Assembly (NCBI GenBank): GCA_039621445.1
Contig: CP154954.1
Coordinates: 6,459,425-6,523,424 of the forward strand
Length of the DNA: 64,000 nucleotides
From: Euglena gracilis
Lineage: Eukaryota
Direction of reading: 5' to 3'
Position numbers and translations under genes: made by a program. Positions within the stretch are counted from its first letter, which is position 1, and every line of letters starts with the position of its first letter. This document shows positions 15,740-49,594 of this stretch, piece by piece. The notes beneath the pieces are model-generated. The model was not told where the DNA came from. It did not search any database and was given only the letters and a program-made list of their open reading frames with translations.

Positions 15740-16139
15740 AGTGTATGTCCTACCTTATCGCTTTCGCTCTTTGGTGCGCAGAAAAAGATATAAGTAGGAG
15801 TAACAGGAAAAATATAAAATAAATATAAAAGTTGTATTGCCCTTTTCCCCAATTAAGAGGCAGAGCACAAGACGCTGTTGGAAGCCCTATGGGCTACGAC
15901 AAAAGATGCCAAGTATCTGGCAGTCCTTTCAGGACTTGTTTGATCAAATCAAAACTTGAAGATTGAAAGAAGAAAAGAATACCACCTGCAGAGAGGAGGT
16001 CACGTGATCACACGTGATCGTGATCACGATTATCCCTAGGCTCTGCCACAATCCTAATTCTGAGACTATGCTCAGCATTCAGATTGTGGATGAGCAGTTC
16101 TATGGCGAACCACAGAACTGGGATCGTGCCCGGTACACA
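15740..16139 (-). repeat. Element A 3' LTR (TGTGTACC...CATACACT on minus strand)
   Basis: Direct repeat of 32389-32789, immediately preceded on the minus strand by the PPT. Confidence 0.95.
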
Positions 16140-16150
16140 TCCCCCTCCCA
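16140..16150 (-). other. Element A polypurine tract (GGGAGGGGGA)
   Basis: Abuts the 3' LTR and is identical to the element B PPT. Confidence 0.85.
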
Positions 16151-16983
16151 GGGCTATAGCCCGATTTCCCTCATGGACCAGGCTATCCCAGGCACATGGG
16201 GGTTCGGACATAGTCCTGAGGGATATGTTCCAGCACATTGCTGCCGACCTCCTATCTGCCAAATGGCAAAAGGAAAAAGGGAAGAAAAGTGCAAAAGCAC
16301 GCAAAAACGCGCAAAAGTGGTTAACTGCTTATGCGGTGCCTACTTATTGCGGCAAAGGGGTAGAAGCGGAAGAGCCCATTGGGAAATGGGGCTGGAAGGT
16401 TTCCTTTCCAGAAAGTCCCATCCACCCAGTTTGGGGTGTGTCTATGACACGCGGGGAGGTCTGATTCCATAATCGGAAAAGATTGAAGGGTAGGGTGTGG
16501 AAGGAGGGGGCACCTGGCCAGTCATATCTGACCAGGGAGAAACACCTATTTACAAAACCAACTGCCGGCGACAGCGATATTTTGCCCCGGGGGGTAAAGG
16601 AGAGAGGAGTGGGGGGCTGGTCAAAAGACCTCAGCAGAAGTTTTGCTGTCTGGCAGTCTTATGTGGCCTTATAGCCGAAAAGTAACAAGTTGGGGGCTAT
16701 TATTACGGTGTGCGCGCTGTACGCTGTGTGTCTTCTTACTGGCGGCATATACCGCTAGGAGAAGGCTTCACAGCGCTGCTCGGACACGATGTTGTCGATG
16801 GGGTATCCCCAGAGGCATATACCTCGATAGACGGGCAGTAGCCCAAAAGAGAGGGGGTAATATGTAAAGTAAAAATACATATTGGCAGATGTGCCTGGGA
16901 TAGATACCGAATACAGGGCCTGTAGGCCTGATGGAAAGGTCAGAACAGGGTCCATGGACCGGGTGCCTGTAAGCCTGGGGTAT

Positions 16984-19900
16984 CTATGGCACAGATGGCC
17001 ATTTCCTGGGAGTCGGTGGTCTGATCTCCCGAACGTAATCTCCTTCAGGAGATTCCACTATCTCCAGTATCGGAGGTTCGAAATTTACAAGTTGCCTTTC
17101 AGGCTCATCGACATCAAAGTCGGGATATTCCCATTTTTGTGTATACCCATCGGGTAATCGTACTCCAAGCATGTTGGCTTCGCTATGAAGAAAATTCTGG
17201 AGGTTATCCCAGAAGAAAAGTAGCAACATTGCCGGCCAGATACATAAATTTAGTCGGGGATGGTTGCATTGAACCTGTGGGGGTATCCCCGGATAAACGG
17301 CAGGATCTGCCTTGGTGTGCCAACCTGCGACTCGCGCTCGGATGGTGAATGGCCTTAAAACTTCTCTTACCCAATCGGTAAATTCCATTTTATAGGCCTC
17401 AGGGGGGTATTCAGGCAACAAAAAGGTAAAACTTGGTCGTGTTGGCAGGCTTTGTGCCGTAAAAAGTGGGTATATCACCCTGTCCCAATCGGAGTCTTGA
17501 AAAATGTATGGCACTTTGGCCTTGCCTGCTGACTCGACTGCGAGTCGGACAGCTGCGCTGTCAAGATGAAAATCTTTGGCGATTCCGCCTGTGCGGTAGC
17601 TGTGTACAGCTTTAAACTTCTTGAACTGGTAGAAATTGATTTGGGACTTATAGTCCTGCTTGAATTTGACCAGATGGTCTTCATTTTCTGGTATGACTCT
17701 AGTCATACCGCCAGTGGCAGGTAGCCAAAAATCTGCCTGTAGGCAGTTGATGCAACGGACAGGTATGTCCTTGTCATAATCGTTTTCCGTCCAGCGGAAA
17801 TTGTCCATATTGGACCATGTCAGTAGGCAATCGCCACAAACCAGTGCTGCGCAATTGCGCACATATGCATCATGGTGGAAGCTTATGCTATCCGGGTTGC
17901 GTGTGCAGATATGCACTGCGGGCATGTCGTTTCGTAGCCTATGGCATGCTGTACATAACCACAATAGTGGATCGTTATCCTGGAAATCCAGTACGAAATT
18001 TCCTCCAAAATATTGGGCTAATACCCTTGGAGATTTCGCATTCCAAAAACGCCAAGTGTGGCTGGTCGTGAAAATTCCGGGTTGATCCCGGTGGAACAAG
18101 GGCTTGATCCACTTGTTCAGCCAGGGGTCACTGCTATTGCGGATCATATTGATCCTAGCCTGGCGAGTGTTGAGGGGGTCTACTCTGGACAATACGTCCT
18201 CAGTCCAAAATGGCTCATCGGCCTCGTGAGGGACATTTGACCGAATCGGTCTGATTGTGGGTTTGCGCTTAGCGCCTTCAGAGGTTGCAGCCACATAGCT
18301 GGCCATGGGTATCGTAGGCCTATGGCCTGTGCCAGAGCCATCTCCACCAGACGGTGGTGGCTCATCATCCCGCCGCTGTTCAGCGGGCTTGCAGCCTTCG
18401 GCTGGAGGGTTACCCTTGGGCTTGTTATGCCTGCCATCTCGGCGTTCTTCACGAGGGTCTGCCGGAGGCAGAGGTCTCTCCGCCGTTGGCGGTTTCGGAG
18501 CTGCCGGTGATGCCGATGCTGCCGGTTTGGCAGGAGGTGGTTGCATTTCCGCCGTTGGCGGTGCTGGTGCAGCTGGTTTAGCTGCTGGGACATCCAACTC
18601 CATTGGAGTTGTAGCCGTAGGCTGTACGGCTGTTGAGCTGCTATCTGCCGTAGTAACCCTTTGGGTTTCGGGAGGGGATGTGGCTGGTGAGCCTCGAGGG
18701 GTCAGTACTGCTGATACTGCGGACATCGCCGCGGTCAGACCCTGTAACACACCACCTAAAACACCTGTAGGTATTGTTGGTGATGCGACAGGTTCTGTCG
18801 GGGTTGGTGCCGTTGGCACTGCGGGTAAGGAGAGGGGTGGTACGGGAGGTACCGGTGGCCGTTCGGCCTCGGATGTAGGAGATTCCGTCTCTGAGCTGAC
18901 ATCTCCTTCAGGCGGAAGGGGTGTCCTGGAGCCCTTTGGGACTAATGGAAGGGCTGATGGCTGAGAGTACTCAGCACATATGTCTTCCAGGCCTTCCATG
19001 CGGTCTTCACCGCCCTCACCATCACTCTCCTCACTGTCCTCCACCGTTTCTGGTGAAGCGGCAGGGGCTGCTGGCTGTTCCGCTATAGCGGTGGGCACAG
19101 TTGTTGGTTGCGCAATCGCGCTGGTGGGGGGTGCCGCAGTAGCGGGCTGGGGTGAAGAGGTAGCGACAGAAGATTGACTCTCCTGAAATCCCATAGGGAT
19201 AAATGGTTCCGCAGTAGCCGATAGGCTGGAACCTAGGTAACGCCGACCGCGCCCAAAGACGGGTGGCGGTGTGTGTGTCACCAGGAGTACCCTGGGGAAC
19301 AGGCGTTGCCGGTTGCGGCTGCGTTGTGGGTACTGATGCCGGTTGCGGCTGTGTTGAAGGTTCCGATGGCGGAACTTCCGAAGCCGGTTGCGGCTTTGGG
19401 ACAGGTGCCTGTGGCACCTGTCTTTTCCGTAATCGGAAAAGATCCCATGGTTTCCTTTCGTCTTCAACCATTCTGTGGTTGAAGCGCAGGAGGGGTAGGG
19501 CCATGCCCAGCTCGTTCCGTCTGCCGCCTTGGAAAAACGGCTGGAACAGCGCTCTATCGAGCGTATCGCCGAATCGGCGTTTGACATAATCGTCTATGCT
19601 TTCCTTCTCGAACCGTGGCCTGATGGGGACATAGTCCGGAGGAATTTCCCTATCGGGATTGAGATAATAATATATCTCCATAATCTGGCAGGTCCAAGCC
19701 CTGAACCAGAATTGCTGCAAATACAGCAGGAGTTGACGGTGGTTGCGTCGCCCATTCGAGCTTTGGTGAACATCCTTTGGATTTCTGCAAAGGTGCAGGA
19801 GCATGATGCGCTTTGGCGCTGCGTACGGGATATTGGCCTGTTGGCCTTCCTCGTCCTGGCCTTCGGCCTGTGGTTGAGTACTGCGTACTCCGAATCCCCA

Positions 19901-22827
19901 GAAGTCCACTGCAAACTTTTCGTGACAGTGGGTGCATCTGACGATATACGTCTGGGGGAAGCGGAGGTCAATATCGACCACTTCAAAATGATAGGCATAT
20001 TGCCAGTGGTAGAAGACTTGCAGATTGCTGCAGAACATGTTCTCTGCCAATTTGGCAATATTGTCAGGCAGTGGGTAGATTTCCCACTCCAGGCCTTTTG
20101 GGCCTACACTGCGAATGCAGTCGAATAACTGCCGTAGCAAATCTTTACCTGTATTGTATCGGTCTTCCCGACCGCAATCCAGATAAGGATATCCACAGGA
20201 GTTCAGGAATCTGCCGAAATTTTGGGTGGGGTATCCCGCCCAGAACCAAACGTGCCAGAATCCCGGCAGTCCGTCCAGTATCGGACCGAGAATTACGTTG
20301 CCCTCATAGGCATACAGGGTTCCATCGTGGTGGAACTCACGATTACGCTCCAAATAGAGCTGTCTGGTCACAGTCACGACGGGGGATGCAACCAGCATTG
20401 GAAGAGAAAGTTCGTTTTGAAACTTTCTCATGGCCTCGAATGCGAGTGCATGAATCTCTTTGATGTGCTCGAATAGAGCTTCCATGTCGTCCTCATAGAC
20501 GTTCCGGTATTGGCCTTTCTGGCCTTTGCCTTGGCCTTTTTGGCCTGCTGTCGGTGCTCGTTTGGGAGCACTTTTGGCTTTACCCTTGCCCGATCGGGCT
20601 TCGCTTCGGGCAATCTCTTCTCTAGCTTGTTTCCAAGCATGAGGATTGAGATTGGCTGCAAAACGAGGGCCTATAAAGGCAGGATTCATATCGCTTGTTG
20701 TTCCAAGCAATTCCTGCGGGGCATAAGCCATTTTGGCTGCTGGGTAGGCTGCAGGTTGATCCTGCATATCGGCCAAAAATGGTGGGTTATTGATAGGGAG
20801 GGGTTCGCCTCTAGGCGGATCGATGTAAGTGGGGTTGCGTGTACGTTCACGCGTGTCATCCAGTATTTTCTGGACGCTCAGCAGCTTCGTGCTCGATTTC
20901 TGCCCTATGGGCTCTCTGGGCCCGTTCAGCCTGTTCGAGCTGCTGCTGTGTGGGTTCAGGAACAGACAGTACCTCGTTTGTGGCCTTTTGGCCTGGAGTT
21001 TCCGGTTTTTCCTGGGATGCCTGGGATTGGCGTTGTTACATGTTGGTGCGCCGTAGGCGCTGCTACCGGCAATGGCGCCGTTGGCGCTGCTGGAGCTGTC
21101 GGCGCTGCTGCTTTTGCTGGCACCGGCCGGGGGGGGTTGCGCCATCGGCGCTGGCTTCGCCGCAGCAGCATACGGTACGGGCACGGGAGGGGGTGCGGCC
21201 TGTTGGCCACCCGATGCCCGCCGTTGCTGTGCCGGGGTAGCCTGTCTGGCTGGGGCTGGGGCAGGGGCCGGGGGTTTCGGTCTCCCCATTGGGGATGAAG
21301 ATTCTGGCCTGCCCCGTTTACTACCTAGGTCTGCTGGCCTGTACGGCTGTGACGCATATCTGCGTTCTGCCGACCGTGGGCCCTGAAGTGCTCCAGGGAC
21401 TGGTAGTACTGGATGGCCTGCTGAGGTGATGTGAAGCGAGGTGTTGGGAGAGGTTCAGGTGCCGTTGGCACATCCTCTTCCACGGCCATTCGGCCTTCGG
21501 CCTCGGCTCGCTCCACGTCCTCAGCCCAGGATCCAGGATCCTGAGCCACCGACATATCCCGTTGTACGGGTAACTGACTTCCAGCTTCCAGATGGGCTGG
21601 ATAAGGAAATGGTGGTTGTGCTGTTGACGGTTGCGTCATTGGCTCCGCCGCATATTGCGTTGGTGGTTCCCGATATTCGGGTGGTGGTGGTCTCGGCATA
21701 CGAGTTGGGGACGGGATATCGCGAAAAATTTGTGATGGTTGCACCGTTGGTGCTGGGATGTCTCCCATCTCGCTTTCCTCCACTGGGGGGCTATGCTCCC
21801 GCATGTATTCGGTGAATGCACCTGCGTGATGGCGTATCCGCGGGATAGGCGGTACTGGAATACCCAGTGTACGCATGCTGACCTCAGGGGGATATTCCCC
21901 GGGCATGAAGTACACTTTTCCTGTCATCAAAGTCTGGCCACATGCGCACCATTGTGCAATGGGCCTATTGGCCAGGCCCAGAATTTGACGACAGTGGGTA
22001 TCCCACAGCACCTGTAGAGATGGGTCTACTCTCTCTAGGTTGCTGGCCCGCAAGGCCGTTCGCAGAGTCTTCTCTGCGAGATTCACCAATTCTGCGGTGA
22101 AGGCGGGGTATGGCACCGTTGGTGCTGCCTGTGGCGTCTCATGTGCCACAGGGATCGCGTAAGCGGATATACTACTGCTGCTAGCTGCGGTTTGGGCAGC
22201 GGGTTCCCGGACGGGATAAGCAGCAGGTTGGGGCATCGCCTGTACGGCGTGTACTGGATGCGGGGTACCCTGTACGGGTTGAGATTGGGGTTGGGATTGG
22301 GGTTGCTGAGATGTAACATACTGTGGGGTATACAGGATGGGAGGTGAGGGGCCAGGCATGGCGTAATGCGCCTGCTCCATTGGAGGTGCCTGTCCCTGCC
22401 TCGCATACTGTTGTTGTTCCATTGGAACTTGGTGTACCTGCTGGGGTTGTGACTGTTCCATTGGAACTTGATATGCCTGTTGAGGCTGTGCCGCATATGC
22501 AGCTCCCATTGGCACAGGGGCCGCATAAGCGACAGGTGGCGGTTGCGCCTGAGATGGGGGCGGCATTTGTGCCTGAGAGGGAGGCGGCATTTGTGCCTGC
22601 GAGGGGGCTGACATATGTGACTGAGAGGGGTATGGCATTTGTGCCTGAACCATTTGAGGGGGGGGTGGCATTTGTGCCTGAGCCGCATAAGCGGCTGGAG
22701 GGGGTTGATATACCGCATATGCGGGCGCCCCTTGGGCTGGGGGTGCCGCCGCATAGGCGTGTTGGGGGTAGGGAGGGATGGCATACTGTATAGGGGGCGG
22801 ACCGGGGCCGCGCCCTGGATCTTGCAT
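16984..22827 (-). CDS. Element A ORF3: large accessory protein of unknown function (Pro/Gln-rich linkers, three Cys/His-rich domains), frameshifted
   Basis: Overlapping ORFs 21325-22908, 19031-21289 and 16984-19587; likely ATG at 22827 (MQDPGRGPGP). Three blocks align by eye with element B ORF3. Confidence 0.8.
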
Positions 22828-22944
22828 CGGTCCGGGGACCAAAAAGCAAAAAAGTAGCTTTGATGAGCTGTAGAAAAAGAAGAGAAATGAATTGGGTTTG
22901 GGAGACAATCACAGAGAGGGGAGGAAAAGGCCTATAGGCCGATT

Positions 22945-25900
22945 TCAAAAATTATTCACAGTAATGTCTATGTTATTTCTTTTATTCCAGAGCTTCCAGT
23001 CCTGTTGGACATAACCAATAAAACTGGAGGCTGGCTCCCAGGTGTCCTCCTCTGGCCCATAGCCTTTCCACCTGACCTTCCAGTAGTGGACTCCTCGATC
23101 AATTTTGTGATCGAGAATTTTGTCCACCACAAAATCATCCGTTTCGGGTAACTTGGAACGGGGCTTGAAATAAAGGCACGGTAGTGCTTTGCCATTAGGC
23201 GGGGAAAGATATGGCTTGAAATCATCCATGTGAACATCCTCGATCCCGTTGGGCAGTGCCACTCTATAGCGGCCACTGTTACCAACGCGTTCGAGTATTT
23301 CACAGGGTCCGAGCCAGAGGGGGTCTAGCTTGGAAGCCTGCATACCTATGGCTATTCCGAACCCATACGCGATCACCAGCACTATAGCCAGGTGATTTGA
23401 ATTCTTGTAAAAATTTATTTCTCTTTTGAGAATGGATATCTGTAATGCTTTTCTGAACAGTAGTTCTGAGAGACTCTACCTCAGAGAACCATGTCTCACA
23501 GGTTACGCTACTTCGAGCTGGTCTCTCTGATGGTATATCACCAATTGCTGGGGGTTCTCGCCCAAAAACAATTTTGTATGGGGAGTGGGGTAAAACTAAA
23601 CCCGGTAGGGTGTTTATATAAAAGAGGGACCATGGCAAAACCTGGACCCAGGCCTGGCGCGAATCAGCCAGTGAAAGACGGAGCATATTTACAACAGCTT
23701 TCACTGCTGCCTCGGCGCGGCCATTGCCCTTCGGGCGATATATAATGGAAAAATGCTGCTCGATTCCCAGTAAACCACATAGGGTTGTGAAGAATCGAGA
23801 GGAGATCAAATGATCTTGATCACTGACAATCTCATTCGGTAAGCCCATTAGGCATATGCACTTCTCCATAAATATCTGCGCTAAAATTTGCGCGGTCAAC
23901 CCTGCCTTTTGGCATGGAATGGCTACTATGTAACCACTCAGCCTACAGACGACAACAAAAACATAATCGTAAATTTTGCCGTCTGATCCTTTGCAAGGTT
24001 CTAATTCCAGAAAATCCATGCAGAGGGACGTAAAAATGTCAGGGGGTACGGGGAAAAATCAAGCGTACCAGGGGGGGTACCTCTGCGCGGTTTTTCCGCT
24101 TGACAAATTTGGCACCGTTGCGAAATTTGCAAGCAGCGCGAATGCAAATCGTTTTCTTTCAGGGTTGTACAGTACCTGCGACCCACCAAAGAAAGAAGTT
24201 TGGGGGCCCCAGGGTGACCTTGGTTGTGATAACACAAAAGTACTTCATCAACCAAGTCACGGGGTATACAATATTTATATCCCGCATCATCGCGGTAAAC
24301 CAACCGTAAAGGGGAAAGGGAATAATTATGTACAACCTCGCCATTGCGCAGTCTGTGCACTATCGTGCTATATACAGGGTCATGGGAATAATCCCATTCG
24401 CGAAAGAAGAGGGGGGAAGGAGATTCAGATCGCGTAATGCGACGGGGACCAGGTGTGCGGCCTCGCCGCCTTCTCCCCCGTATAGGAGAGACTGGCAACG
24501 AACGAAAAATCGATGAAACGGGAAAAGAATCCAACATATCGTCGGCTGCGTCATATCGACGTGCATATTCATCAGCCTCTTGGCTTCCATGAAAGGTGGC
24601 ATCACCTTCATCCGGGTTACCGGGGTAATGCCAGGGTGCTCGACTGAGCGGGTCTGCTACTTTTTGTGTATGGCCAGGGGTATATACAACCACTAGGTTG
24701 AACTGGCTCAAAAATTCATGCCATCGGCATCTTCGGCCTACGGATGACATGGCTTTGTTCAGATCCTCGGTATACCAGTGTTGAAGACTCTCATGGTCAG
24801 TCAACACCAGTATTTGCACCAAGGAGCTGGCGACCCAGCTACGGAATTTTTGTAAAATAAGTACGATTGCGTACGTTTCCTTCTCACGGATACTCCATTT
24901 AACTTGGCCTTTGCCATCCTCACCTTGTATAGCTTTCTAGAAGAATGCTACAGGTCGCAATTCGTTAGCCGCGTTATGCTGGCTTAGAACCCCGCCTACA
25001 GCATAATCGCTGCTATCGACTTCTAGCACATAAGGCTTGTAGGGATCCGCGATGTCGAGTACGACATTTTCAAGCATTAGCTTTTTAATGCTCTCTAGAG
25101 CTTCACGCATATCTGCGTCCCATTTGACTTTGGTATTTTCGGGTGCGCGATTTTTGAGTTGCCTCGATAGAGGTACCGCGATTTTCGCGAAATCTTTCAT
25201 GATCGCGTAATATTGGTTGGCCAAAAATCCTTTCAAATGGGTGATGGTCTTGATGACCTCAGGTCGTGATGTCTTCTTAATTCTCTAGTTTGCGCGCCGC
25301 TCGTTGGAAATGATGTGACCGCAAAACATCATTTGGTTTCGCAATAAGTGCATGCGGATTTTGACCATTGAGTTCTGTGGTATGCTGGGGGGGGAACCAC
25401 AATCAATGTTCCAGCGCGCCGTAACGTATGAATGTGAGCGCCATTTATTGGAAAAATCCATGGACCTTTAACAAAAGCCGGTAAATCGGTAATCCCGGAT
25501 CCATAAATCAAAATATCGGGATGTGAACATTCTTTGGGTAAATCCAACATCCTATACCACAAACGTAACCGAAGCTTGGCATGCGTAAACAGCTGTCCAT
25601 GTCAATTGAATCCAATAAGTTGTAACATTTTTCTCCTGAGGGTGTAGCTTTTTCACAAGCCGTATATCCGCTTTCGAATTTCCATCTCTTCTGGGGAGGG
25701 GTACAGATTTGGTGGCCATCCTTCACAAAATCCAAAGCGGTCCGCTGAAAATCTCTATTGAGACAAAGGATTTGGTTCCCATGTGGATTCTGCTTTGCTG
25801 CTTCCGCTCACATGAACAAGTAAACCTGTCTTTTCTACATACATTAAGTTCAGGGGGGGCGACTGAGCCTCCAACACAAAAGCTGTTGATCCCACTTTGG

Positions 25901-28001
25901 AGGATGAATGTCAAGGTCAATCAAAATCACGGAACCATGTTTTCTTGTTAAAACGAAAAATTTCCGATGCATTGGTGTTCCGAGCTATCAACAAATCCCA
26001 TCCGCGAATCGGATCAGAAAGTAAATCCAACACAGAAACATCAGGGGGGGTGCGCGAAAATCATTCATGGCGTTGGATGCTCGCGCAATGTCACTTTCCA
26101 ATGCGCAAAAATTTATTTCATAGGCCAAGGTTTCAAATTGATGCGCTATCGCATTATGAAAAAGCCTATCGGCTCGCACTGGAATCCAACAAATTTCGGG
26201 GGGATTTGAGAGCTGGAAACATCGCAACGAAAGATTTCTTGAAAAGGTGTAATCACCACTCCAGGATCCTCGAATAAGGTGGTTTGGGAATAAATGTGCA
26301 TAAGCAAGAAAATCCTCTGCGGGATTCACAGAACAATTATGCGCCATCGCGCTTGATCCTGTGAATCATCTCCAGCGGGATATGCGGGGGGATGCATCAT
26401 AGGTGCAAACTTATCAAATGATGTTGCGACCAATGCGCGTAATCGCGAATGCGCTGGAGGGATGCACACTTTCCAAGGTCAATCGAATCGATATCGCGGA
26501 AACCTGTTTTCAAATTTGACTATTGCAATTGGAAAAGCATTCCAGGTGCCTTGGTGTACTTGGAGATTCTATTGGGGGGAACACGCGTAAAAGCGGGGTA
26601 TGTGAATCATCCCCTACATGTCCATAGGACTCAATCGGGGGGTGGGTGGGTTGGGCAAACCAATCACCACGGAGCGGAATCCGATATGCGGGGATTCGCA
26701 CATGTGCGCGCGCGATATGCGCGGTTCGCACTATGTGCGGGACGCGATATGCGCGGGGTGTGGGAGAGCGCCATAGGCGCAGGGGGCGCTATGCCAAATC
26801 CGAAGAGGGGGCTATGCACTGTGGTGCTTCGATTCACATCGCGAATTGCAAAAACTACCAAGTGGATTTGTGAGCTGTGCATAATTACCAAGGTGCTGAT
26901 GGGGTATCACCCTTTCAAGGCTTGTACCTTTGGTTATCTATTAAATCCGTACCAATTTTAGTCACTACCAGGTAGAGGGAAAAGTTCCCGGTTGCGGGAT
27001 CCAATCGGATTAGTTGGCAGTTTCAACTAGACATCCCAATCAAAATCATGGTAAGCGAAATTTCTCCGACAGTGCGCATTGGTAGGAGGGTGTGATGTAG
27101 TGCGCGTTTGTGTGGGTGTCAGTGCATAAGTTGGTGTCGGTTGGGGTGCTGGGGGTGTACAGGGGGGGTCTGAATCGCGACACACCTGGTGGAAAAACAA
27201 AGTTGTGCAGCTGGGCGGCTAGTCGACACCGAAAACCAGGCCTTTGGGCTTTCGCCTGGGAACCCAGCGAAACGTGCGGGGTTAAGCTACTGGCTTTCCC
27301 TACCGCATGGAAACGAGCGGAAAGTGCGGTGGGTAGGGGGGCTTTCTCTTACCCCAGGGTAGGAAACGTGTTTTCGGTTGTGGAAAACGTTGTGGAAATG
27401 CGGGGGACATCCTGGGGGATCACGGGGACAAGTTCGGGGGTTTGGTGTGCGGGGGTAGTGCGCAAACCGTGCGAGGACAATCCACCACCAATCGGTGTTG
27501 CCGAGGAACGAAAAACCGAGTATGACTTCTGACCCGGCGATATTCGCCTCGAATGCCCAAGTACCCAGAAAATTTTGGATGTGGGGGGTGTGTGTGGTGC
27601 TTCGGATGGGGAGGACTATGTCCAAATGACAGTCACCGCCTGCCGCATGGGCTGTTGTCAGCGGTCATAATTTTGATGGGATTCTTGGCATGAACCAAGA
27701 GGGGGGTGGGTATGAGTCCTTTGCGGAAAAGAAGGGGGATTAGACACCCTGTGTCGACTAAAATTTTGGTTTGTGCACAGAAATTTTGAGTTTTGATTTT
27801 CGCTTGGACCAAAAGTTCCATGGGGGGTATGCAAAGCGAAGGGTCGGGTGTAAAATTGTTGTTGCGCCAACTGTTCCATGACCCTTGGCTTACTTTGCTC
27901 AACATTCCAAGCAAAAATTTGGCGCGGGGAGTGGGGGACCCGAAACCTACCTCCATCTGTTCATCAGCCCAGAGGTCCGTGCCCTCAGACCTCGGGCTCC
28001 C
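22945..28001 (-). pseudogene. pol: Element A pol: protease, MTase and RT (heavily disrupted at ~25200-27100), RNase H, integrase, chromodomain
   Basis: ILVDTGC protease motif; RNase [15 protein letters not shown]; integrase HNQGH...CQIC and SDQD/GRAE core; WLGPCEI; chromodomain [18 protein letters not shown]. Several frameshifts. Confidence 0.9.
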
Positions 28002-33333: not shown

Positions 33334-33490
33334 TGGTAGCAGATTGGTTACGATCCTATACACACTTCACAAACAGAAAGGCTACCAGGTATTACACTTG
33401 GTAGCAGATTAGGTCACGATCCTACACATACAGCCCATACAGAAAGAAACGCTATCAAGTATTACGCTTGGTAGCAGATTGGTTCGATCC
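33334..33490 (+). other. Element B primer-binding site (tRNAiMet type) in three tandem copies (33334, 33399, 33469)
   Basis: TGGTAGCAGATT(A)GGT..CGATCC occurs three times at 65/70-bp spacing. Confidence 0.85.
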
Positions 33491-33682
33491 TACGCTGACT
33501 GGCAGCGGAGAGCCCCTGCACCGTTATTACACGGTCGCAGCGTCAGCTCCCGGCTTCTAGTCAACGTCTAAGCAGACGAGCAGGCTCCGGAAGGCTCTGT
33601 ACGGTATTACCCGTTACAGCCCCTCTGGTGCCAGCACAACTGCTTAGTTTTGTGGGTTTTTGCTGTTTTTGTCATCAGAAAG

Positions 33683-40600: not shown

Positions 40601-42782
40601 ATTTGGGATGACCAAATGCGCGAGGCCTTGAATAAAATCAAGGACTTGCTCCTCGAGAACGTGGTTCTCGATATCGCGGATCCATACAAACCGTATGTCC
40701 TGGAGGTCGACAGCAGCGATTACGCTGTTGGCGGGGTTCTTAGCCAGCATAATGCGGCAAATGAACTCCGACCTGTGGCTTTCTTCAGCAGGAAGCTACA
40801 GGGCGACAACGGGAAAGGACAGGTTAAATGGAGCATTCGCGAAAAGGAGACATATGCCATTGTGCTAATTCTCCAGAAATTCCGCAGCTGGATAGCCAGC
40901 AGCTTGGTCCAGATACTAGTGTTGACGGATCATGAGAGCCTTCAACACTGGTATACCGAGGACCTGAACAAGGCCATGTCATCAGTTGGCAGAAGATGCC
41001 GATGGCATGAGTTCTTGAGCCAGTTTAACCTGGTGGTAGTTTATACCCCAGGTCATACGCAAAAAGTTGCGGATCCTCTCAGCCGAGCCCCCTGGTATTA
41101 TCCTGGGAACCCGGATGAGGGTGATGCGACTTTTCATGGCAGCCATGAGGCTGACCAGTTCGCACGTCGATCCGACGCTGCGGACAACATGCTCGATTCA
41201 CTACCGGTTTCCCGGGTGTATCGCAGCATCGCCATTTCACCATTGCGTGGAAGGCGCCGGCGTGGACGCACTGCCGGACCCCGTCGCATTACGCGTACGG
41301 AAACTCCTACCCCCCTATTTTTCCGCGAATGGGATTATTCGCGTGACCCTATATAGTACCATTGTGAATAGACTTCGTAATGGTGAATCGATAGAGAATT
41401 ACTCTCTATCACCATTGCGGCTTATTTTCCGGAATGATTCTGGTTATAAATATTGTATACCCCAAGACCTGGTTGATGATGTGATTTTGAGCTATCACAA
41501 CCATGGTCACCCTGGGGCCCCCAAACTTCTTTCACTAGTGGGTCGCAGATATTGCACAACCCTGAGTGAAAAAAAATTATATTCGCGCTGTTTGCGAATT
41601 TCGCAACGGTGCCAAATTTGTCAGGCTGTGAAACCGCGCAGAGGTACCCCCCCTGGTACGATGGACTTTTTCCCCGTACCACCTGACATTTTTACGTCCC
41701 TCTGCATGGATTTTCTCGAACTTGAACCTTGCAAAGGATCAGATGACAAAATTTACGATTACGTTTTTGTTGTCGTCTGTCGGCTGAGTGGGTACATAGT
41801 AGCCATTCCATGCCGGAAAGCAGGGTTGACAGCCCAAATTTTGGCATCCATATTCCTGGAGAAATGCATCTGCTTAATGGGTTTACCGAACGAAATCGTG
41901 AGTGATCAAGATCACTTGATCTCTTCGCGGTTTTTCACAACTTTGTGCGGTTTACTCGGCATTGAGCAGCATTTTTCCATTATATACCGCCCGAAAGGCA
42001 ATGGTAGAGCCGAGGCAGCCGTGAATTCCGTTGTCAATATGCTTCGCCTTTCACTGGCTGACTCGGGTAAGAATTGGTTATCCGTTCTTCATTGGTGTTT
42101 ATTTTACATCAATACCTTGCCAGGGTTGGTATTACCACACTCACCGTACAAAATTGTTTTCGGACGAGACCCTCCGGCCATAGGGGATATCCCCTCGGAG
42201 AGACCCGCCCGAAGTAGCGTCAGCTGTGAAACGTGGTTTGCAGAAGTGGAATCACTCCGCTCTGCAGTCCAATCACGTATCACAGAAATTCATTCCAACA
42301 AACGGAAATCGTTTTTGCAGAACTTCAACACACCTGTGTATAGTCCAGGTGACCGCGTGTGGGTACGGAATAACCGCACCCGCATGCAATCTTCCAAGCT
42401 AGATCCTCTTTGGCTCGGCCCATGCGAAATTTTGGAGAGGTTAGGTAGTAGCGGGCGATATAAAGTTGCCTTGCCCAACGGGATTGAGGACGTCCATATG
42501 GACGACTTCAAACCGTACCTAAGCCCCCCAGACGGAAAAGCTATCCCCTGCCTATATTTCAAGCCCCGTTCCAGATTACCTGAAACGGACGACTTTGTGG
42601 TCGATAAGATAATAGACCACAAGGTCGACAGGGGTGTGCACTACTGGAAAGTTCGCTGGAAAGGGTATGGGCCAGAGGAGGACACTTGGGAGCCAGCATC
42701 CAGTTTTGTTGGATATATCCAGCAGGATTGGAAGCTGTGGAACAAGCGCAATAACATAGACATAAACATAAACACTTTCTGA
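37660..42782 (+). CDS. pol: Element B pol: PR - linker - N6-adenine MTase-like - RT - RNase H - integrase - chromodomain; TGA at 38212, frameshifts near 40115 and 41350
   Basis: [63 protein letters not shown]...CQIC, DDE core, WLGPCEI; chromodomain [10 protein letters not shown]...[15 protein letters not shown]. Confidence 0.95.
39109..39510 (+). CDS. Dam/DIRS-type DNA N6-adenine methyltransferase-like domain within Pol
   Basis: [18 protein letters not shown]...[51 protein letters not shown] follows the pattern IDLFAS..N...DAF...W...[NF]PP..LI..VL.KI...LI.P.W....W of retroelement MT domains. Confidence 0.8.
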
Positions 42783-42976
42783 AACGATTTCGTTTTGGAG
42801 AATGCATATGTTTTATGTGAATGTTTCGCGTTTATACCCCCCCTGCACTTCCTTATTTCTCTATCTTTCTCGCAGAGTTTTAATTAAGATAGAAGCCTTG
42901 CTTTTTCAGTGCTCTCGCACTCAAAGCGACTGACAACAAGGTTACCCTTAGTTGTCGTCGTCGTTCGGGTAGCATC

Positions 42977-45900
42977 ATGCTGCCTGGGCGCGGACCTGGA
43001 CCAGGTCCACCATGGCCGCAGCCTTCTGGCGCGCCATACCCCCAGTACCCTCAGTATGCTGAGGCCCCGATTCCGGGTGCCCCACATGCTGAGAGGGTTT
43101 CAGCCCGGGTATTCGCCGCGGCTACCAGCAGCCGGTCCGCATATGCGGTACCAGATCCATCTGCCGTCCAGCAGCCGGCACCTCAGCCACCAGCGCAGCG
43201 CAGATCGCGCCTGCCCCCGTATGCGGGAGAGATGATCTTCCGCACTACGGAGACGTTGGAGCGGGCGATGCGTATGTGCGCACACCCCCCAACGGAGCCC
43301 TTTATGCAAGCCCTTTGGGATGCATACTGTGCTCAGTTGTTGGTGGTAGCCAACACGCCTGTGGCTCAGTGGTGTCCCTGCGGTCAAGCCCTGATGACAG
43401 GGAGACGGTACTTCTCGTCCGCAGCCTATTCTGGCTTCGAACCCGGCGAGACCATGATGGACTTGGGCGTGTATGTGCCGCCCATGCTGCAAACGCAGAC
43501 GCCGGTGGGATCCCACACCGTGCATATGCGTGAGCACACGCCCCCACCGGTAGGTGAGGCTGTGCATGTCCCACCTGGGATGACGAGAATTTTTGCTCGC
43601 CCGCCCTCGCCGCAGCGAATGCCGCCGCGCGAGCCGCCAGCGGAGCAATTTGTCTCGCGGTACGCGACGCACGCGGATTACCCGCGCGGCGCACGCGTGC
43701 TCCCAGCCGGACAGTCGGACGTGCCCCCTGAGGCATACGTCCAACACATGTTCATGCACTGGATGCCTCAGGCATCATCGGTCGCCCCTGCCCCTGGCGT
43801 TGAGCCACGGAGGCAGGCGGAGCCCATAGTGGTGGAGGATGAACCTCCCCACCGTGAGGCAGCCCGACCGCCCAGTGCAGCCCCTGTCCAGACTGGGGAT
43901 GTCCCCGTCGGCAGGAGACTCCGTACTATCACGTGGCACCTCCGGGAACCGAGCAGGATGAGCTTGCTCGGCACTTCCTGCAGGAGCCAGTATTCGCGTC
44001 TGAAGAGCACCGGACGAGGTATTACTCCTCTCTGGCTGCCCTTCAGGGCCGTGGATACACCCCATACCATCCGTACCAGCCGCAGCTGCGGGTGGCAACC
44101 CCGGTATTACCCGGTGAGCCCCCGGCAGGTGTGGCAGTATTGCCTGCCACGAAAGCGCGACAGGGGACTACGGAGAACCTTACCCCACAGCCCAGGCGAC
44201 CCAGCCCACGGGACGCGGAAGGCGGTATGGCAATGCAAGTGGAAACTAGCCAGGATACCCCGGCTGGACGACCACCGGCAGAGGCACAGGTGGCGATGAG
44301 CCGTCCTGTTGCCGTAATGCCACCGCCGATCCCTCCGGTATGGAAGGAGCCGCGACCCCCTGCGTCGAAGCCAAGCCCACGCCAGGCTCCTAGCAAGCGC
44401 CCAGCCACGCCATCACCGCGACGTGCAGCAGAGCGGCCAGGTCCCTCCCCAGAGATGGAATGGGAAGGAACCGAACCGACTCCTGCGGCACCGAGCGCCC
44501 GACCCTCTGGTATTCGCCAGACGGGAAAGGAGACAGGCAAGGCCGAGGGCAAAGGCAAGGGAGAAGGCAAAGGCGTGGCCGGCAAAGGGAAGGGTGAGGG
44601 TAAAGGTAAGGGAACAGCACGTGAGGAGGAAGAAGAACCAGCAGAAGTCCTCTCGGACTTTGAGCATATGCTCAGGTTCAAGGAGGAGCTGGAGGACGAA
44701 GGCTGGCGAATGCAGCATGATTACCATGTTGCAGGAAACCGCCCCGTCACTCCTCCACAAGCAGTCATCGATGTGGTATTACGCCACACCGAGAACCGAG
44801 TCAGACTATTCCATTACGGAATAGATCTGTACGCTTTCGAATGTGAAGGTGGCAGACCCTTGCTGGATGCCCAGCCAGGTTTCTGGGAGCTCTGGTTTTG
44901 GCTGGGATACCTCTGCCAGAACTGGGGTCTCTTCAGCGATTCCACTGGTCGCAGTTACCTGCACCAGTTGGGTTTTCGGGACCAGCGTGTGTTGGCCCGA
45001 AGGCTGAAGGCAGTCTTCGACTGTATTCATACAGTTGGACCCCTCGGCGTGCAGTGGGAATTCTACCCACTACACCCCGACATCGAACGCCTGATCGAGG
45101 TGTTGTGGTGCAACAACCTCCAGGTGTGGCTGGTGAGCCATTACGGCTCCACCTTCCGCGTTAGGCGTGTTTCCCTGGCTTACCCGCAGAGGTACGACCT
45201 CTGCTGTAAGTACTGCCGGCAGGAATTTCCTGTCGACTTCTGGGGATTCGGCGTGCGCGGAAGTCCTCCACCGCCTCGGGATAACCCGGGCCTGGAGATG
45301 GGACGCCGCATGCTTATGCATGTGTGCCGCGACGCCCCGGATGTCCAGGGCAAAAGTCGCCGCGTCCACAAGCAGCGTATTTTTATGCTGCAGCAGTTCT
45401 GGTGGCGAGCCTGGACCACCTATGTCATGGAGGTGTACATACATCTCCGTGACCCCCAGGACGATAGGCCTGGTATGGAAAGCCTGCCACCGGATTACGG
45501 TGACGCCATCGAGGGTCCTCCTCGTCGGATTCTCGGCCACCTGCGCCCCAACTGGCACCTGGCTGATATCAGCCTGGAGGAACATTTGCGGCGACAGTTT
45601 GGTGGTACCCTCGACCGGGAGGTATTCATTCCGCTGATGTCTCACCCGAAGGCCATCCTCGACCAGCGTATGCCGATTCTGGCATGCGTTCAGGAGTTCG
45701 AGGAGGGCTTTTTCGACGTCTGGGAAGACACGCGTTACCGCGGCTTCCTGGGCCCGAACAGGCCTGCCAACGCCTGGGTGCAGCCATCATGGCCGCCACC
45801 CTGGCCCAACAGCGCCAGTAGCAGTACGCTGGCCTTTTACAGGCTGGCGGATGCCCAGGGATGCCGATGGCACCCCGACGATCCTCGTTCGCCCGAGGAT

Positions 45901-48457
45901 CTGCGCGCCTTCATCGCCCCAGAGGATGAACCTCTGGCGCGAAGGAGACGTGAGGCGTCAGTCGCTTCCACCACCGCTACTCCGCGGCGGGAGGAACGCG
46001 ACCGCAGCCCCTCTGTCACCATTCTGGAGGCAGCGCCGCCGTCTCCGACAGGAACGGCTGTATCCTTCGTCTCTGCCCCGCGAGCGGCAGGGGAACGATC
46101 GGTTTCCCCGGCTCCCGCGGCGGCTCCCGTCTGTCCACCGGCAGGTGGAGACGAGGAACTCCCTCAGGAGGAAGGCGAGAACGTGGAGGATATCAGCCTA
46201 GGCCAGACGAAGCACCCGCAGGGGATATACCTGTGGCTGCTACGACTGTTCCAACGGCTGAGCCTCCAGCCGAGGTGACTGGTATGGTCGTCGAGGATAT
46301 CCTCGAAGAACCTACCAGCCCCGCAGCACGCACCTCATTAGGAGGCCGTGTGCTCGGCGCCGTAGTCACCGGCATTACTGCCGTGGCTGCTGCACTAACG
46401 CCACGAGGTGGAGGCGTAGCATCAAGCTCCGCCGCTGAGGTCGTGGAGACACCAGATATCGGTGCCCCCACACCCCCATCTCCGGCAGCAGTGCAACCAT
46501 CTTCAGGAGATGAACCCCAGCCGACAGAGCCATCTGTCGCACCGGCTACACCGGAGGATCAACCTCCCGTAGCACCTGCGCCAGCGGTTGTGGACTAGCA
46601 ACCTCCTAGACCGGATGTCGACATGGAAGTGGAGGAGATACCCCCACGACCATCGACACCGCGCAGGGTCCCTGCCGCCCCGAGGACAATGGCAGAGTTT
46701 CTGGGAGCGCCAGCGCCTGTGGAAGCACCGATTCCGGTGACGACCACAGTGCCACGCCTCGTCGGACAGGATGAACCTGCTCGGCGACGGCCGGCTGAAC
46801 AACCCCAGGAACGAGTGCCGACCCCTCGGAGCGTCATGCGCGACCCAGCGGTCAGTATGCCCGCTTGGCCCAGACGGCAAACGTCTACTCCGGCACCATC
46901 GGCTCCTGATACCAGGAGTAAGCCGCAGGCGTCGTCTCCTGGAGTGCGAAGCCGAAAGGAGGCAAACCGGGTGCTGCACCCTGTAAGCCCCCTTCCAAAG
47001 GCGGTGATGGGAAACCACCACCGAAAGGTGGCGCTGGAGGTCAGACTGGCGGACAGCCGAAAGGCCCTACGACAATGCACGACTATTCGGCCGTTGCATC
47101 GTCCGGGTACGGCCAGAGCAAACCGAAAGGTAAGGCTCGTGGTCGACAGGCCCAATCTTCCGCCGGATCGACGGATGAGGAGCAGGATGAACCTGCTTCA
47201 CCTCCTGTGTCTGCGGATGCCCAGCTCTGGACCCAGGATATCCTGACCACACTAGGCACCGTGGAAGAGAGGACGAAGAAACTGGCTGCTATTAGGCACC
47301 AGACAGGGTCACTGAATCGATGGATTCAGCCCCTCTTCGTCCGCGGAGAACCTTTCCACTATGTCCCGGAACATACCTGGACATTCTGGAACAGGCGCTC
47401 ACCCAGAGTACTGGCACAGTACTTTGGCGAGGACTGCTTGTTGGATTTCCAGCACGGCACGTCCTTTGCCTGGACGTGCACCGTGTGCCACCATGTGCGG
47501 CACAACCAACCGCTTGTGCATGTGTGCAAGCGGCAGGTGCAATCTTCGTGGTTCCATCACAGGGCATATGTGCCGAACTGTGTGGCGCTCGTATGTGGCG
47601 AGTGCCTGAATGCCTGGAAGCACAGCTTGAACTACTCCTACAGTGAGAATGCTCACGACAGGGATATCCCTGCCTTGTGCATCAACTGTATAGGAGGCAA
47701 GTTCGTCAAGACTGCTGATGGAGCAGTCACCACCATTGTCCCCCAGCACTGGGAGACACTGGATAAGTGGAAGAAGAAGTACAAGCAGGTGGAAGGCCGC
47801 CTGAAGCACTCCGACTTCAAAAAGGTAGAAAGCTACCGCCACACGGGAATGGCCCGTGAGTTCCAGATCGACGCTGGGGCAATGCGCCTCGCCGTTGAGG
47901 AACATGCCAAGGTAAGAATGCCTTACCTCTGGACTGATGGCGACTGGGAGACACAGGTTTACCCCCTGTTCTCCAAGCGTCAGCATGGCGGATACGCCTT
48001 GCCACTGTGGCCTCCTGAAGAACACGATTTGGTGGACTTCAGAGGTTGGTTGGCGGCTGTATTACGGCCCCATACCGCAAGAGCTCGGACAGCGAGGTGG
48101 ATGTATGACATCAACTTCAAGCAGACCCCGGGGATGCCCCCGCAGGTGCCTGCGAATCACCCCCGGATGAATTACATCATCTGGCCGGTGATGCTGCCCA
48201 GAATTTTCTGGGAGCAACTCCAACGGTATCTTCAGCATCATGCTGAACGTACCAGGGAGAAGCTGCCGGATAATTGGATCAAGGACTGGGAGACCCCTTC
48301 CTTTGATGTCAACGATCCGGAGCTCAACACCATTCGGAGTGAATCAGCTCCGCCGCGTTCCCCACGCCAACTGGAGTTGGTTGAGGACTCATTAGGGGAT
48401 CCCCAACACGACTACTGGCGTGAGGTGCGCGAACGCCCAGCCGATAAAGGCAGGTGA
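42977..48457 (+). CDS. Element B ORF3: ~1800-codon accessory protein of unknown function, with frameshifts and one in-frame TAG (46596)
   Basis: Chained ORFs 42977-, 43933-, 46233-, 46623- and 47075-48457; three domains are homologous to element A ORF3. Confidence 0.8.
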
Positions 48458-49270
48458 GGTGTCTGTAAGCGCCAATGCGGCGTCTTTCAGCACCCTCGTC
48501 GGGTATTCGCCTGACACCCTGTTTGGGTATTCGCCCGAACAGCCCCTTCGAAGACCCTTTGCGGTATTCGCCGCTAGTAAGTTCCCACCGGGATGCTGCC
48601 ATGTGCAGGATTCCGTGCGCATGCATGCACACCCCTCTCCCCTCTCCCCTCTCGCGGGCGTGCGACACGCAGCGCACAGGGCCGACGGCCTCTTTTCCTT
48701 TCCCTTTCTTTTCTTTTCGGCCGTTTGAGGCCTTAAGGCTGCCAGACAGCACAACTTTTCTGGCCTAAGCCAACCCCCCACTCCTCTCTACTTTCCCCCC
48801 GGGGCAAATGCTGTCGCCGGCAGTTGGTTTTGTAGAGTAGGATTTCCTTTTGCGTGGTCAGGTTTGACTGGCCATGCGCCCTGCCCAGGTTTGACTGGTC
48901 AGAGGCCCCCCTCCTTCCACACCCTCCCCATGGGTTTTCCTGGAATGCCCATGGACCCAACCCCAAGTGCCTTGGGCACACCCAAACTGGGTGGATGGGT
49001 TTTCTTGGCAAGGAAACCTGCCAGCCCCATTTTCCCCAGTGGGCTATAATATACTATATACCCATAAGCCACCGCAGAATAGGTGAAACCATTTTGCGCG
49101 TTTTGGGCTTTTTGGGTCCCCTCCTTTCCGCCCCCCCCCTTGAGTGGACCCCTGTGCGACGGAAAGGGCCCCTGTGGATGCGCCAGGGTGCACCTCCCAC
49201 AGACCAGGTCTGTGTCCGAAGTCCCTGTGGCCAGAATGCCTGGTCCAAAGGGGAAATCGGGCATAGCCCT

Positions 49271-49280
49271 GGGAGGGGGA
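49271..49280 (+). other. Element B polypurine tract GGGAGGGGGA
   Basis: Abuts the 3' LTR. Confidence 0.85.
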
Positions 49281-49594
49281 TGTGTACCAGGCGTATGCTT
49301 CTGTCCCCTTCCGTTGAGGAAGTTAGGATGGAAGCAGATCCTATTAGGATCTCCTAATGGGTGCCCCTTCTCTCTCCACAGGTGGTATTCTTCTTTATAC
49401 CTTTTCCTTCCTTTCCATCGGACCGGACTTGGTTATCCAGTCCGTCCTCTCTGCATTGCTCTGTGCTTTGCTTCTTGGGAAGTGGGAAAAGGTATTTTCT
49501 GTTACTCTGATTTTCAGTTCCCAAGTAGGTGCGCCAAGGCGAAAGCGAAGGCTTTTGGGAATTGGGAAAGGGAATTGGGAATCAGACGTACACT
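49281..49594 (+). repeat. Element B 3' LTR
   Basis: Direct repeat of 33020-33333, followed by TSD cccag. Confidence 0.95.

Follow-up and report, generated by a model that had tools for sequence, protein, structure and literature searches.

Two giant chromodomain Ty3/Gypsy insertions in Euglena gracilis, with a Dam-like domain in one and a constrained third open reading frame in both

The 64,000-nucleotide stretch of Euglena gracilis DNA analysed here (the window) holds, at positions 15740-49594, two independent LTR retrotransposon insertions lying head-to-head, element A on the minus strand and element B on the plus strand, to which all coordinates below refer. Very probably these are dead copies of two related and highly abundant families of the Ty3/Gypsy chromovirus type, each about 17 kb in length. 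A third open reading frame (ORF3) has been kept under constraint in both lineages, and B also carries a Dam-like methyltransferase (MT) domain within pol, in which the catalytic motif is altered.

The boundaries of both insertions were read directly. Element A spans 15740-32789 (17,050 bp) and is flanked by the 5-bp target site duplication GCAGG (32790-32794 and 15735-15739), with a 5' LTR of 401 nt (32389-32789, TGTGTACC...ACACC) and a 3' LTR of 400 nt (15740-16139, ending in ACACT) that show 5 mismatches to each other. Element B spans 33020-49594 (16,575 bp) between two copies of the 5-bp duplication CCCAG (33015-33019 and 49595-49599), and its 314-nt LTRs (33020-33333 and 49281-49594) likewise have 5 mismatches. 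All LTRs start with TGTGTACC and end in ACACT, with the exception of the last base, C, of the A 5' LTR. The primer binding sites (PBS), located at 32363-32388 in A (TGGTAGCAGTTTAGGTTTTTCGATCC) and at 33334-33356 in B (TGGTAGCAGATTGGTTACGATCC), have the start TGGTAGCAG in common, and we take them to be matched to the initiator tRNA-Met. In B the LTR end together with the PBS was also found duplicated at about 33394-33421. The polypurine tract (PPT) CCCTGGGAGGGGGA is the same in both elements (16140-16153 in A, 49267-49280 in B) and belongs to 3' UTRs (16140-16983 and 48458-49280, respectively) which contain strongly conserved blocks. An earlier sequence-only reading had proposed two insertions sharing LTR ends, a PBS, an identical PPT and a conserved 3' UTR, and this was borne out by the features read at both elements. 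Paired LTRs with target duplications, a PBS at the 5' LTR and a PPT at the 3' LTR are the arrangement of a Ty3/Gypsy LTR element, which would be transcribed from LTR to LTR and would prime its reverse transcription at the PBS.

Both copies are damaged. In element A, gag is interrupted by a nonsense codon (30745-30747) and by a frameshift (within 28684-28886), and there are further frameshifts in the protease (PR; one), in the integrase (IN) and in ORF3 (two), and element B has frameshifts in gag, reverse transcriptase (RT), RNase H/integrase (RH/IN) and ORF3 as well as a stop codon in PR. In DNA run X1, 107,170 contigs match B at an identity of at least 90%, and the summed depth on B differs little between gag, MT, pol and ORF3. 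At the exact sites of B's frameshifts, other copies in this run read +C at 37101, +TA at 41349 and +C at 43902, and the gag frameshift near 37101 is copy-specific.

The gag genes are large, with about 1,370 codons and two CCHC knuckles in A (28002-32127) and about 1,230 codons in B (33962-37659), where one knuckle was found by Pfam and the second was seen by eye in the translation. In both elements gag ends with a UAG codon (28002-28004 in A, 37657-37659 in B) that is in frame with PR, and 6 nt after it lies a 13-bp hairpin (27966-27998 and 37663-37695; one bulge in A), nearly identical between the two elements (z -3.05 and -2.63), in agreement with the stop and hairpin proposed beforehand. 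In gammaretroviruses, the gag-pol read-through signal consists of an in-frame UAG, a short spacer and then a stable structure. A and B have the same three parts, although the structure predicted here is a simple hairpin. By analogy with gammaretroviruses, Gag-Pol may be produced by read-through of the UAG, aided by the conserved hairpin.

In B, pol begins with the protease (37660-38300; LIDTGC seen by eye, in-frame stop at 38212-38214), and includes a reverse transcriptase (RVT_1 with YIDD, 39886-40399, frameshift within 40106-40149), RNase H (40604-41026), an integrase with H2C2, rve and SH3_Tf2-1 domains (41457-42503), and a chromodomain (42594-42701), with the pol stop codon at 42780-42782. 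The Pfam order RVT_1, RT_RNaseH, Integrase_H2C2, rve corresponds to PR-RT-RH-IN with a DDE integrase. In A, the protease region (27642-28001) is in frame with gag and 67% identical to that of B, and the C-terminal half of RT, RNase H, integrase, SH3 and the chromodomain follow in a frameshifted region at 22948-25355. Thus zf-CCHC, RNase H, Integrase_H2C2, rve, SH3_Tf2-1 and Chromo were detected by Pfam in both elements, the chromodomain being C-terminal to the integrase and after SH3_Tf2-1 (E 3.7e-10 in B and 4.7e-11 in A). Comparison of the two elements gave dN/dS values of 0.05 for RT-RH, 0.06 for IN and 0.18 for gag. The RH-IN-Chromo arrangement was confirmed in both elements, and their description as giant chromodomain Ty3/Gypsy elements is supported. 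The proposed order PR-MT-RT-RH-IN-chromodomain holds for B, but A lacks MT and the N-terminal RT half. Like chromoviruses, the two elements have the PR-RT-RH-IN-chromodomain order, SH3_Tf2-1 and Chromo after the integrase and CCHC knuckles in Gag; unlike chromoviruses, they have a Gag of about 1,230-1,370 codons, an extra ORF3 and, in B, an MT between PR and RT. They are about three times as long as typical chromoviruses. By analogy with chromoviruses, the chromodomain may tether integration to chromatin with methylated histones.

The MT of B (39052-39519) lies between PR and RT inside one uninterrupted frame of 644 codons (38215-40149), which supports the MT-in-pol claim made for this family. 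Against Pfam Dam the domain itself stays under the threshold, scoring 18.2 bits where the cutoff is 28.1 (E 0.002). At E <= 1e-3 the search gave 403 homologous representatives, and at E <= 1e-10 it gave 88; all 10 that were scanned gave a Pfam Dam match (E 1.6e-7 to 4e-3), the curated cutoff being reached in two. The structure model (pLDDT 84.8) has its best structural matches in N6-adenine methyltransferases, namely PCIF1 (Z 10.5; Foldseek E 1e-3), KsgA (9.1), METTL5 (9.0), M.BseCI (8.3), T4 Dam (7.9) and M.TaqI (7.7). Motif IV of the domain, at 39280-39291, reads HPPP. Among the 139 relatives in which the motif columns are occupied, the consensus is NPPF (46/139), position 1 is N in 92 and position 4 is F, W or Y in 91; HPPP is shared by only three, and is common to B and its closest relative, P0012 (74% identity). 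The motif therefore falls outside the pattern (D/N/S)PP(Y/F/W) of competent N6-adenine amino-methyltransferases, in which both of the residues changed in HPPP contact the target adenine. Because motif IV is HPPP and not NPPF, canonical adenine methylation is doubtful in the B lineage, and we think, judging from the motif, that it has been lost and that the domain persists as a structural or binding module. HPPP might still permit catalysis or other chemistry.

In a bioRxiv preprint of May 2026 (10.64898/2026.05.21.726589), the available text describes DAM-LTRs as Ty3/Gypsy elements, many with chromodomains, that carry a Dam domain derived from DIRS elements; a Euglena gracilis group with chromodomains is included, and it was proposed that the cDNA is marked by 6mA. 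The MT of B would be such a DIRS-derived "eukaryotic DAM" domain, and family B would thus belong to the DAM-LTRs as the preprint defines them. It is conceivable, though we consider it rather doubtful, that the B-family MT is an active N6-adenine DNA methyltransferase that marks the cDNA or an RNA:DNA hybrid so that new insertions come to lie in 6mA-permissive chromatin, which was the idea of the sequence-only reading and is, in its available text, the model of the preprint. In keeping with activity, the predicted fold is closest to N6-adenine enzymes, B retains each of the 10 family residues that are nearly invariant, the pol frame runs through the domain, whose depth in run X1 is like that of its neighbours, and DAM-LTR insertions with 6mA methylation are reported in the preprint to be more numerous in E. 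gracilis. A part in countering host silencing or in the choice of insertion sites, which that reading had also suggested, is conjecture. Set against this are the altered adenine-contacting positions in both B and P0012, and, according to the same text, E. coli assays of other eukaryotic DAM domains in which activity was not detected. The DAM-LTR logo given there is Asn-Pro-Pro-aromatic, unlike the HPPP of the B lineage, and the Pfam Dam match of B (E 0.002) would not pass the 1e-5 screen used in that work. The replacement of NPPF by HPPP is possibly new for this lineage.

The third frame covers 16984-22827 in A (about 1,947 codons, two frameshifts) and 42977-48457 in B (about 1,826 codons, interrupted in this copy by one stop and three frameshifts), and the expected ORF3 of about 5.5 kb was confirmed as a homologous frame of about 5.5-5.8 kb in both. 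It is built of three conserved modules joined by Pro/Ala/Gln-rich linkers, which are 39-41%, 35% and 41% identical in amino acids between A and B (E 7e-27 to 7e-125), and the modules gave no nucleotide match by blastn. In these modules pN was 0.39-0.46 and pS, which is saturated, was 0.76-0.83, supporting the view that ORF3 is a selected part of both families. Two of the modules have CxxC motifs and one has CxC; the Zn-finger suggested earlier was not confirmed, as only a conserved Cys/His pattern was seen and Pfam gave no match even at E <= 5. Since the searches that were run found no homologue outside Euglena gracilis and no Pfam or PDB match, and since the structure model is unusable (pLDDT 33.7), any function of ORF3 is a guess. 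ORF3 would be a soluble, non-envelope accessory protein with three constrained modules and disordered linkers, and is possibly a new, orphan frame of about 1,800-1,950 codons. Between pol and ORF3, B has a spacer (42783-42976) in which a conserved pyrimidine tract precedes CAG as a putative acceptor. The splice acceptor that had been claimed was not substantiated beyond this tract; the RNA-library contigs contained neither a splice joint nor a spliced-leader end for ORF3, and one of them runs unbroken from IN into ORF3. Expression is probably from a subgenomic RNA produced by splicing or by spliced-leader trans-splicing.

Like the env genes of errantiviruses and retroviruses, ORF3 is downstream of pol and behind a putative acceptor, and it could be suggested that it is an envelope-like gene and that the elements are endogenous retrovirus-like agents. 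We regard this as very improbable, since in six ORF3 pieces from A and B no 19-residue Kyte-Doolittle window exceeds 1.6, sequence matches are lacking in both Pfam and PDB, and the Pro/Ala/Gln-rich composition with Cys/His clusters is unlike that of fusion glycoproteins. Equally improbable is that ORF3 is not a gene and that its frames stay open because the DNA is GC-rich and poor in stops. GC is 0.56-0.61 over the ORF3 of B, many overlapping frames are open on both strands, and homologues were not found elsewhere, but the modules are conserved as protein with blastn blank, pN is far below pS, and a 123-residue fragment derived from the Euglena gracilis transcript EG_transcript_43227 in EukProt (P0156) is 99% identical to the ORF3 of A. 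By this one fragment the window is also assigned to Euglena gracilis.

In A, the place taken in B by MT and the N-terminal half of RT is occupied by a non-coding region of about 1.6 kb (25356-26982), which has no ORF and no match to B by tblastn, nhmmer or profile; the MT HMM gave E of about 1 on A, compared with 1.2e-74 on the B control. MT, the RT N-terminal half and YIDD are therefore present, within the window, only in B, and the claim that MT is conserved across the two families did not hold. A 1.6-kb replacement has removed both parts from copy A, which could only have moved in trans. That the MT is foreign to B, having arrived as part of a nested DIRS element or through chimeric assembly, is very improbable: the domain is missing from A, and according to the available text of 10.64898/2026.05.21.726589 some of the mixed DAM-LTR/DIRS signals in Euglena may be due to nested insertions or chimeras, but MT and RT share the 644-codon frame with the C-terminal end of PR at its start, Pfam finds neither a tyrosine recombinase nor a second RT, MT precedes RT in 19 of the 20 database relatives holding both domains, RNA-library contigs cover 38571-39804, and DNA depth is even over MT.

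The order of MT and RT in these relatives also weakens the novelty of this arrangement, and the claim of a new lineage is itself weakened, and in large part anticipated, by the DAM-LTRs already described in the preprint, in so far as its available text goes. B resembles these in being a chromodomain Ty3/Gypsy LTR element of E. gracilis with a DIRS-derived Dam-like domain in the pol of a non-DIRS element, a domain that A does not have. The main text of the preprint does not deal with gag, protease, element length or a third ORF, so that ORF3 is undescribed there. Its EpiLTR subset has a DNMT, unlike B, in which none of 8 coding pieces gave a DNA_methylase match (Pfam, E <= 0.01) to a cytosine-5 DNA methyltransferase. 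Tentatively, ORF3 can be viewed as an accessory protein of about 1,900 residues, restricted to a clade of giant Euglena DAM-chromoviruses and under purifying selection in families with saturated synonymous sites, that partners a Dam-derived domain which has lost the canonical motif, is non-catalytic and binds nucleic acid or 6mA. If true, chromodomain, pseudo-methyltransferase and ORF3 would make up a three-part kit for chromatin interaction, departing from the active-DAM model of 10.64898/2026.05.21.726589 as set out in its available text.

The MT domain of DIRS elements is homologous to that of B, is also Dam-like in Pfam and has the pattern DAF...LW-NPPF...K...G...P. In DIRS, however, RT-RH comes before MT and a tyrosine recombinase and split or inverted repeats are present, whereas B has MT before RT, a DDE integrase, LTRs and 5-bp target duplications, and no tyrosine recombinase was found in it by Pfam. 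Retrotransposons with a captured DNA methyltransferase have been described before, and in the available text of PMC5890265 the Gypsy-DNMT3 and SymbioLINE/DIRS-DNMT elements have one of the cytosine-5 type, while B carries a Dam-like amino-methyltransferase fold.

The repeat scan of the window returned two LTR pairs, and once their ends had been read directly these were resolved into two complete insertions. Element A (15740-32789, minus strand) is 17,050 bp long, with LTRs of 401 and 400 nt that differ by 5 mismatches and a target site duplication of GCAGG, and element B (33020-49594, plus strand) is 16,575 bp long, with LTRs of 314 nt each, also with 5 mismatches, and a target site duplication of CCCAG. 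Since the target duplications differ and the LTR interiors have diverged, the two were inserted independently and belong to distinct, though related, families. Both LTR types start with TGTGTACC and end with ACACT, and in both elements the LTR is directly followed by a primer binding site (PBS) starting TGGTAGCAG, which we take to be the complement of the initiator tRNA-Met 3' end. An identical polypurine tract (PPT), CCCTGGGAGGGGGA, adjoins the 3' LTR upstream, and in an alignment the two 3' UTRs have several long, near-identical blocks in addition to the PPT. The conservation of these blocks, against the diverged DNA of the extra ORF downstream of pol (ORF3), is consistent with cis-acting roles. 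The sequence-only reading had described two independent insertions with different LTR interiors and with LTR ends, PBS, PPT and 3' UTR in common, and all of this was borne out.

The two elements lie head to head, separated by 230 bp (32790-33019), with the target duplication intact in each; this spacing might point to a favoured neighbourhood for insertion, as chromodomain-guided integration would predict, or to chance, the genome being rich in repeats. B has its LTR end and PBS (TACACTTGGTAGCAGATT...) twice, about 66 nt apart (33328-33421). Other copies in sequencing run X16 apparently carry the second PBS version only (AGGTCACGATCC), suggesting that the doubling is a duplication specific to copy B. 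Outside the elements, the left flank contains an array with an 11-nt period, (CA)n/(CACG)n repeats and CACCC-rich low-complexity arrays (2472-3291, 4446-4688, 9833-10915), in which the long "ORFs" match no Pfam family other than a compositional mucin-like one; flanking ORFs in general gave no Pfam match except this low-complexity type, and Rfam and tRNA scans of the 64-kb window returned 0 matches.

The coding region of B contains, in order, the Pfam domains zf-CCHC, RVT_1, RT_RNaseH, Integrase_H2C2, rve, SH3_Tf2-1 and Chromo; Dam (PF05869) is matched weakly, at E 0.002 and 18.2 bits vs a cutoff of 28.1, between protease and RT, within a single open frame of 644 codons (38215-40149). As the earlier reading had it, gag is very long in both elements (~1,230 codons in B, ~1,370 in A) and stops at a UAG with a hairpin behind it. 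The UAG is in frame with the protease, and the hairpin, of 13 bp and one bulge, lies 6 nt downstream. Apart from one C/U substitution, which leaves a G-U pair in place, the hairpins of A and B are the same, and compared with shuffled sequences they fold with z-scores of -3.05 and -2.63. The UAG and hairpin fit a read-through signal, by which the protease would be reached from gag. In the chromodomains of A (22948-23343) and B (42594-42701), F, W and Y were found by eye, apparently at three cage positions (B: FVVDKI...VRWKGY), presumably those of the HP1 aromatic cage; such a cage would fit methyl-lysine binding. Neither copy is intact: B has a frameshift in gag, a stop codon in the protease, further frameshifts in RT and RH/IN and an ORF3 broken at several points, and A has a nonsense codon and a frameshift in gag, frameshifts in protease and IN, and two in ORF3.

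When pieces of B were compared with A by tblastn, identity was 45% in gag, 67% in the protease, 81% in the C-terminal half of RT with RNase H, 79-89% in IN and 32-41% in ORF3. The MT-RT frame of B from residue 188 to 644, together with the initial 82 residues of the RT piece that follows, was unmatched in A. The Pfam domains of A are zf-CCHC, RNase H, Integrase_H2C2, rve, SH3 and Chromo, with no match to Dam or to the N-terminal part of RT. The counterpart of this region in A (25356-26982) is interrupted by many stop codons in every frame and does not match the rest of the window. It might be taken for a decayed MT-RT, and a first nhmmer alignment with an E of 1.5e-16 seemed to say so, but this alignment came from the homologous flank, and the core alone found nothing in B. 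Weak colinear blastn matches in the replacement stretch (E 0.001 and 0.07) were taken as chance. A profile HMM of the MT family and the RT of relatives likewise found nothing in A before the point where homology resumes; the HMM gave an E of ~1 on the six frames of A vs 1.2e-74 on the B control. Therefore A is without the MT and the catalytic half of RT, including YIDD, and the order PR-MT-RT, which had been proposed for both insertions, holds for B only.

In B itself, the Dam-like methyltransferase (MT) domain (39052-39519) is real. In a full-library HMMER search with its 205-residue region, 403 representatives matched at E <= 1e-3, of which 88 remain at E <= 1e-10 and 9 at E <= 1e-30. A homologous-protein search with the domain had a single relative (P0012) as its sole match. 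Pfam Dam was matched by all ten relatives scanned (E 1.6e-7 to 4e-3), two of which reach the curated cutoff. The domain order is Dam, RVT_1, RNase H and integrase in three relatives (P0017, P0026, P0084) and Dam, RVT_1 in a fourth (P0005), and among the relatives listed MT precedes RT in 19 of the 20 that have both domains. An AlphaFold2 model from a 37-row alignment has a confident pLDDT of 84.8, and its top Foldseek match is PCIF1 (E 1e-3). By VIA-align Z score its neighbours are PCIF1 (10.5), KsgA (9.1), METTL5 (9.0), M.BseCI (8.3), T4 Dam (7.9) and M.TaqI (7.7), so that the closest structural neighbours of the predicted fold are N6-adenine methyltransferases.

All ten near-invariant residues of the MT family are kept in B; motif IV is nevertheless HPPP (39280-39291). 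Among the 139 of 154 relatives with the motif columns filled, NPPF occurs in 46 and HPPP in 3; at the first position 92 have N, 27 have H and 13 have C, and at the fourth 91 have F, W or Y and 6 have P. The motif of B could be put down to decay of the copy, but P0012, the closest relative (74% identity), also has HPPP, and the motif therefore looks like a trait of the lineage. In (D/N/S)PP(Y/F/W) enzymes, both residues altered in HPPP contact the flipped adenine. Since both changes fall on these contacts, canonical adenine methylation by the HPPP domain would, from the motif, be unlikely.

ORF3 starts ~195 nt past the pol stop, after a conserved pyrimidine tract followed by CAG, and is ~1,826 codons long in B and ~1,947 in A. 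The two elements have three conserved modules in common (39-41% identity over 111-188 residues, 35% over ~340-380 and 41% over 500), set apart by divergent Pro/Ala/Gln-rich linkers, and there is no blastn match between the two ORF3 regions. By the Nei-Gojobori method, A vs B, RT-RH and IN have a dN/dS of 0.05-0.06 and gag one of 0.18; for ORF3 the ratio is not computable because synonymous sites are saturated (pS 0.76-0.83), and pN is 0.39-0.46. With pN well below pS and the modules conserved, ORF3 is a constrained coding part of both lineages, in keeping with the claim that it is a selected part of the element. It has a conserved CxxC in modules 2 and 3, a CxC in module 1 and its largest Cys/His cluster in module 3. 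The whole pieces match no Pfam family at E <= 0.01, and the six modules, searched at E <= 5, gave only two zinc-ribbon-like matches (E 0.1-0.18), in one copy. An envelope-like role was dismissed because ORF3 is without a transmembrane-like segment. The modules showed no similarity to each other or to gag/pol, and there was no meaningful match among PDB sequences; searches of the ESM Atlas reached a score of 0.79 at best or had no usable match, and an AlphaFold2 model from a 3-row alignment has a pLDDT of 33.7. A protein-collection search found no homologue of near-equal length and, at shorter lengths, only an E. gracilis transcript fragment, and of 596 pattern stretches matched in metagenome contigs 0 were confirmed. 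Across the Pfam, PDB, ESM Atlas, protein and metagenome searches, neither a family nor a fold was identified, nor any homologue outside E. gracilis. The sole database homologue, the 123-residue EukProt sequence EG_transcript_43227 of Euglena gracilis, is 99% identical to A; the window can therefore be assigned to E. gracilis or a closely related strain, and ORF3 sequence is present in a transcriptome.

In May 2026 a preprint (22 May) reported that Dam-like domains, formerly known only from DIRS elements, also occur in Ty3/Gypsy elements, termed DAM-LTRs (bioRxiv 10.64898/2026.05.21.726589). Chromodomain-bearing LTRs make up 30.9% of its DAM-TEs, one of its five lineages is a Euglena DAM-LTR/DIRS group, and a DAM-LTR subset that also carries DNMT is named EpiLTRs (bioRxiv 10.64898/2026.05.21.726589). 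It found more 6mA-methylated DAM-LTR insertions in E. gracilis and proposed that reverse-transcription intermediates receive 6mA; assays in E. coli gave negative results (bioRxiv 10.64898/2026.05.21.726589). The broader concept of retrotransposons capturing adenine methyltransferases and chromodomains is thus already available as a preprint. We found no other descriptions of Euglena LTR families in the literature searched. Of the proposed new lineage with a chromatin toolkit, then, the anatomy mostly stands, an MT in both copies does not, and the novelty has largely been overtaken. The main text of the preprint is silent on gag, protease, the length of the elements and any further ORF, and its Dam screen was set at E <= 1e-5 (bioRxiv 10.64898/2026.05.21.726589), a threshold that B, at E 0.002, would fail. 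Possibly new are the full-length anatomy of the 17-kb elements (LTR, PBS, UAG read-through signal, MT before RT, PPT), the degenerate catalytic motif of the B lineage, which tests the "active DAM" model, and the very large, constrained orphan ORF3.

The family of B is extremely abundant in the DNA run compared with it (X1). Fourteen DNA runs of one organism contain 77-86% of the sampled words of B, and in X1 107,170 contigs match B at 90% identity or more, with similar summed depth over gag, MT, pol and ORF3. LTR elements account for between about a fifth and a third of the 2.37-Gb E. gracilis genome, a content given in bulk only (PMC11252322). Because this share is large and the B family so abundant, the role of the extra parts bears on how the genome grew. 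Other copies in X1 have an additional C at 37101, TA at 41349 and C at 43902, the frameshift sites of B; the breaks are therefore specific to copy B, and the first two pieces of ORF3 form one frame elsewhere. RNA-library contigs cover the MT of B (38571-39804) and run unbroken from IN into ORF3 (42308-44719). No ORF3 splice joint was seen in them, and as such contigs cannot show absence, this does not count against splicing of ORF3.

Rare internally deleted derivatives of the B family also occur in X1, with joints such as 33729>48886, 36774>48111, 39568>42754 and 42836>48795, and one contig has telomere-like GGGTTA repeats between window positions 41337 and 41427. A leaf-litter metatranscriptome (X17; window 39600-49580) contains 42% of the sampled words of B, and its contigs fill all 30 depth bins of B at 90-99% identity, an indication that cells like E. 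gracilis, or nucleic acids from them, occur in this type of habitat.
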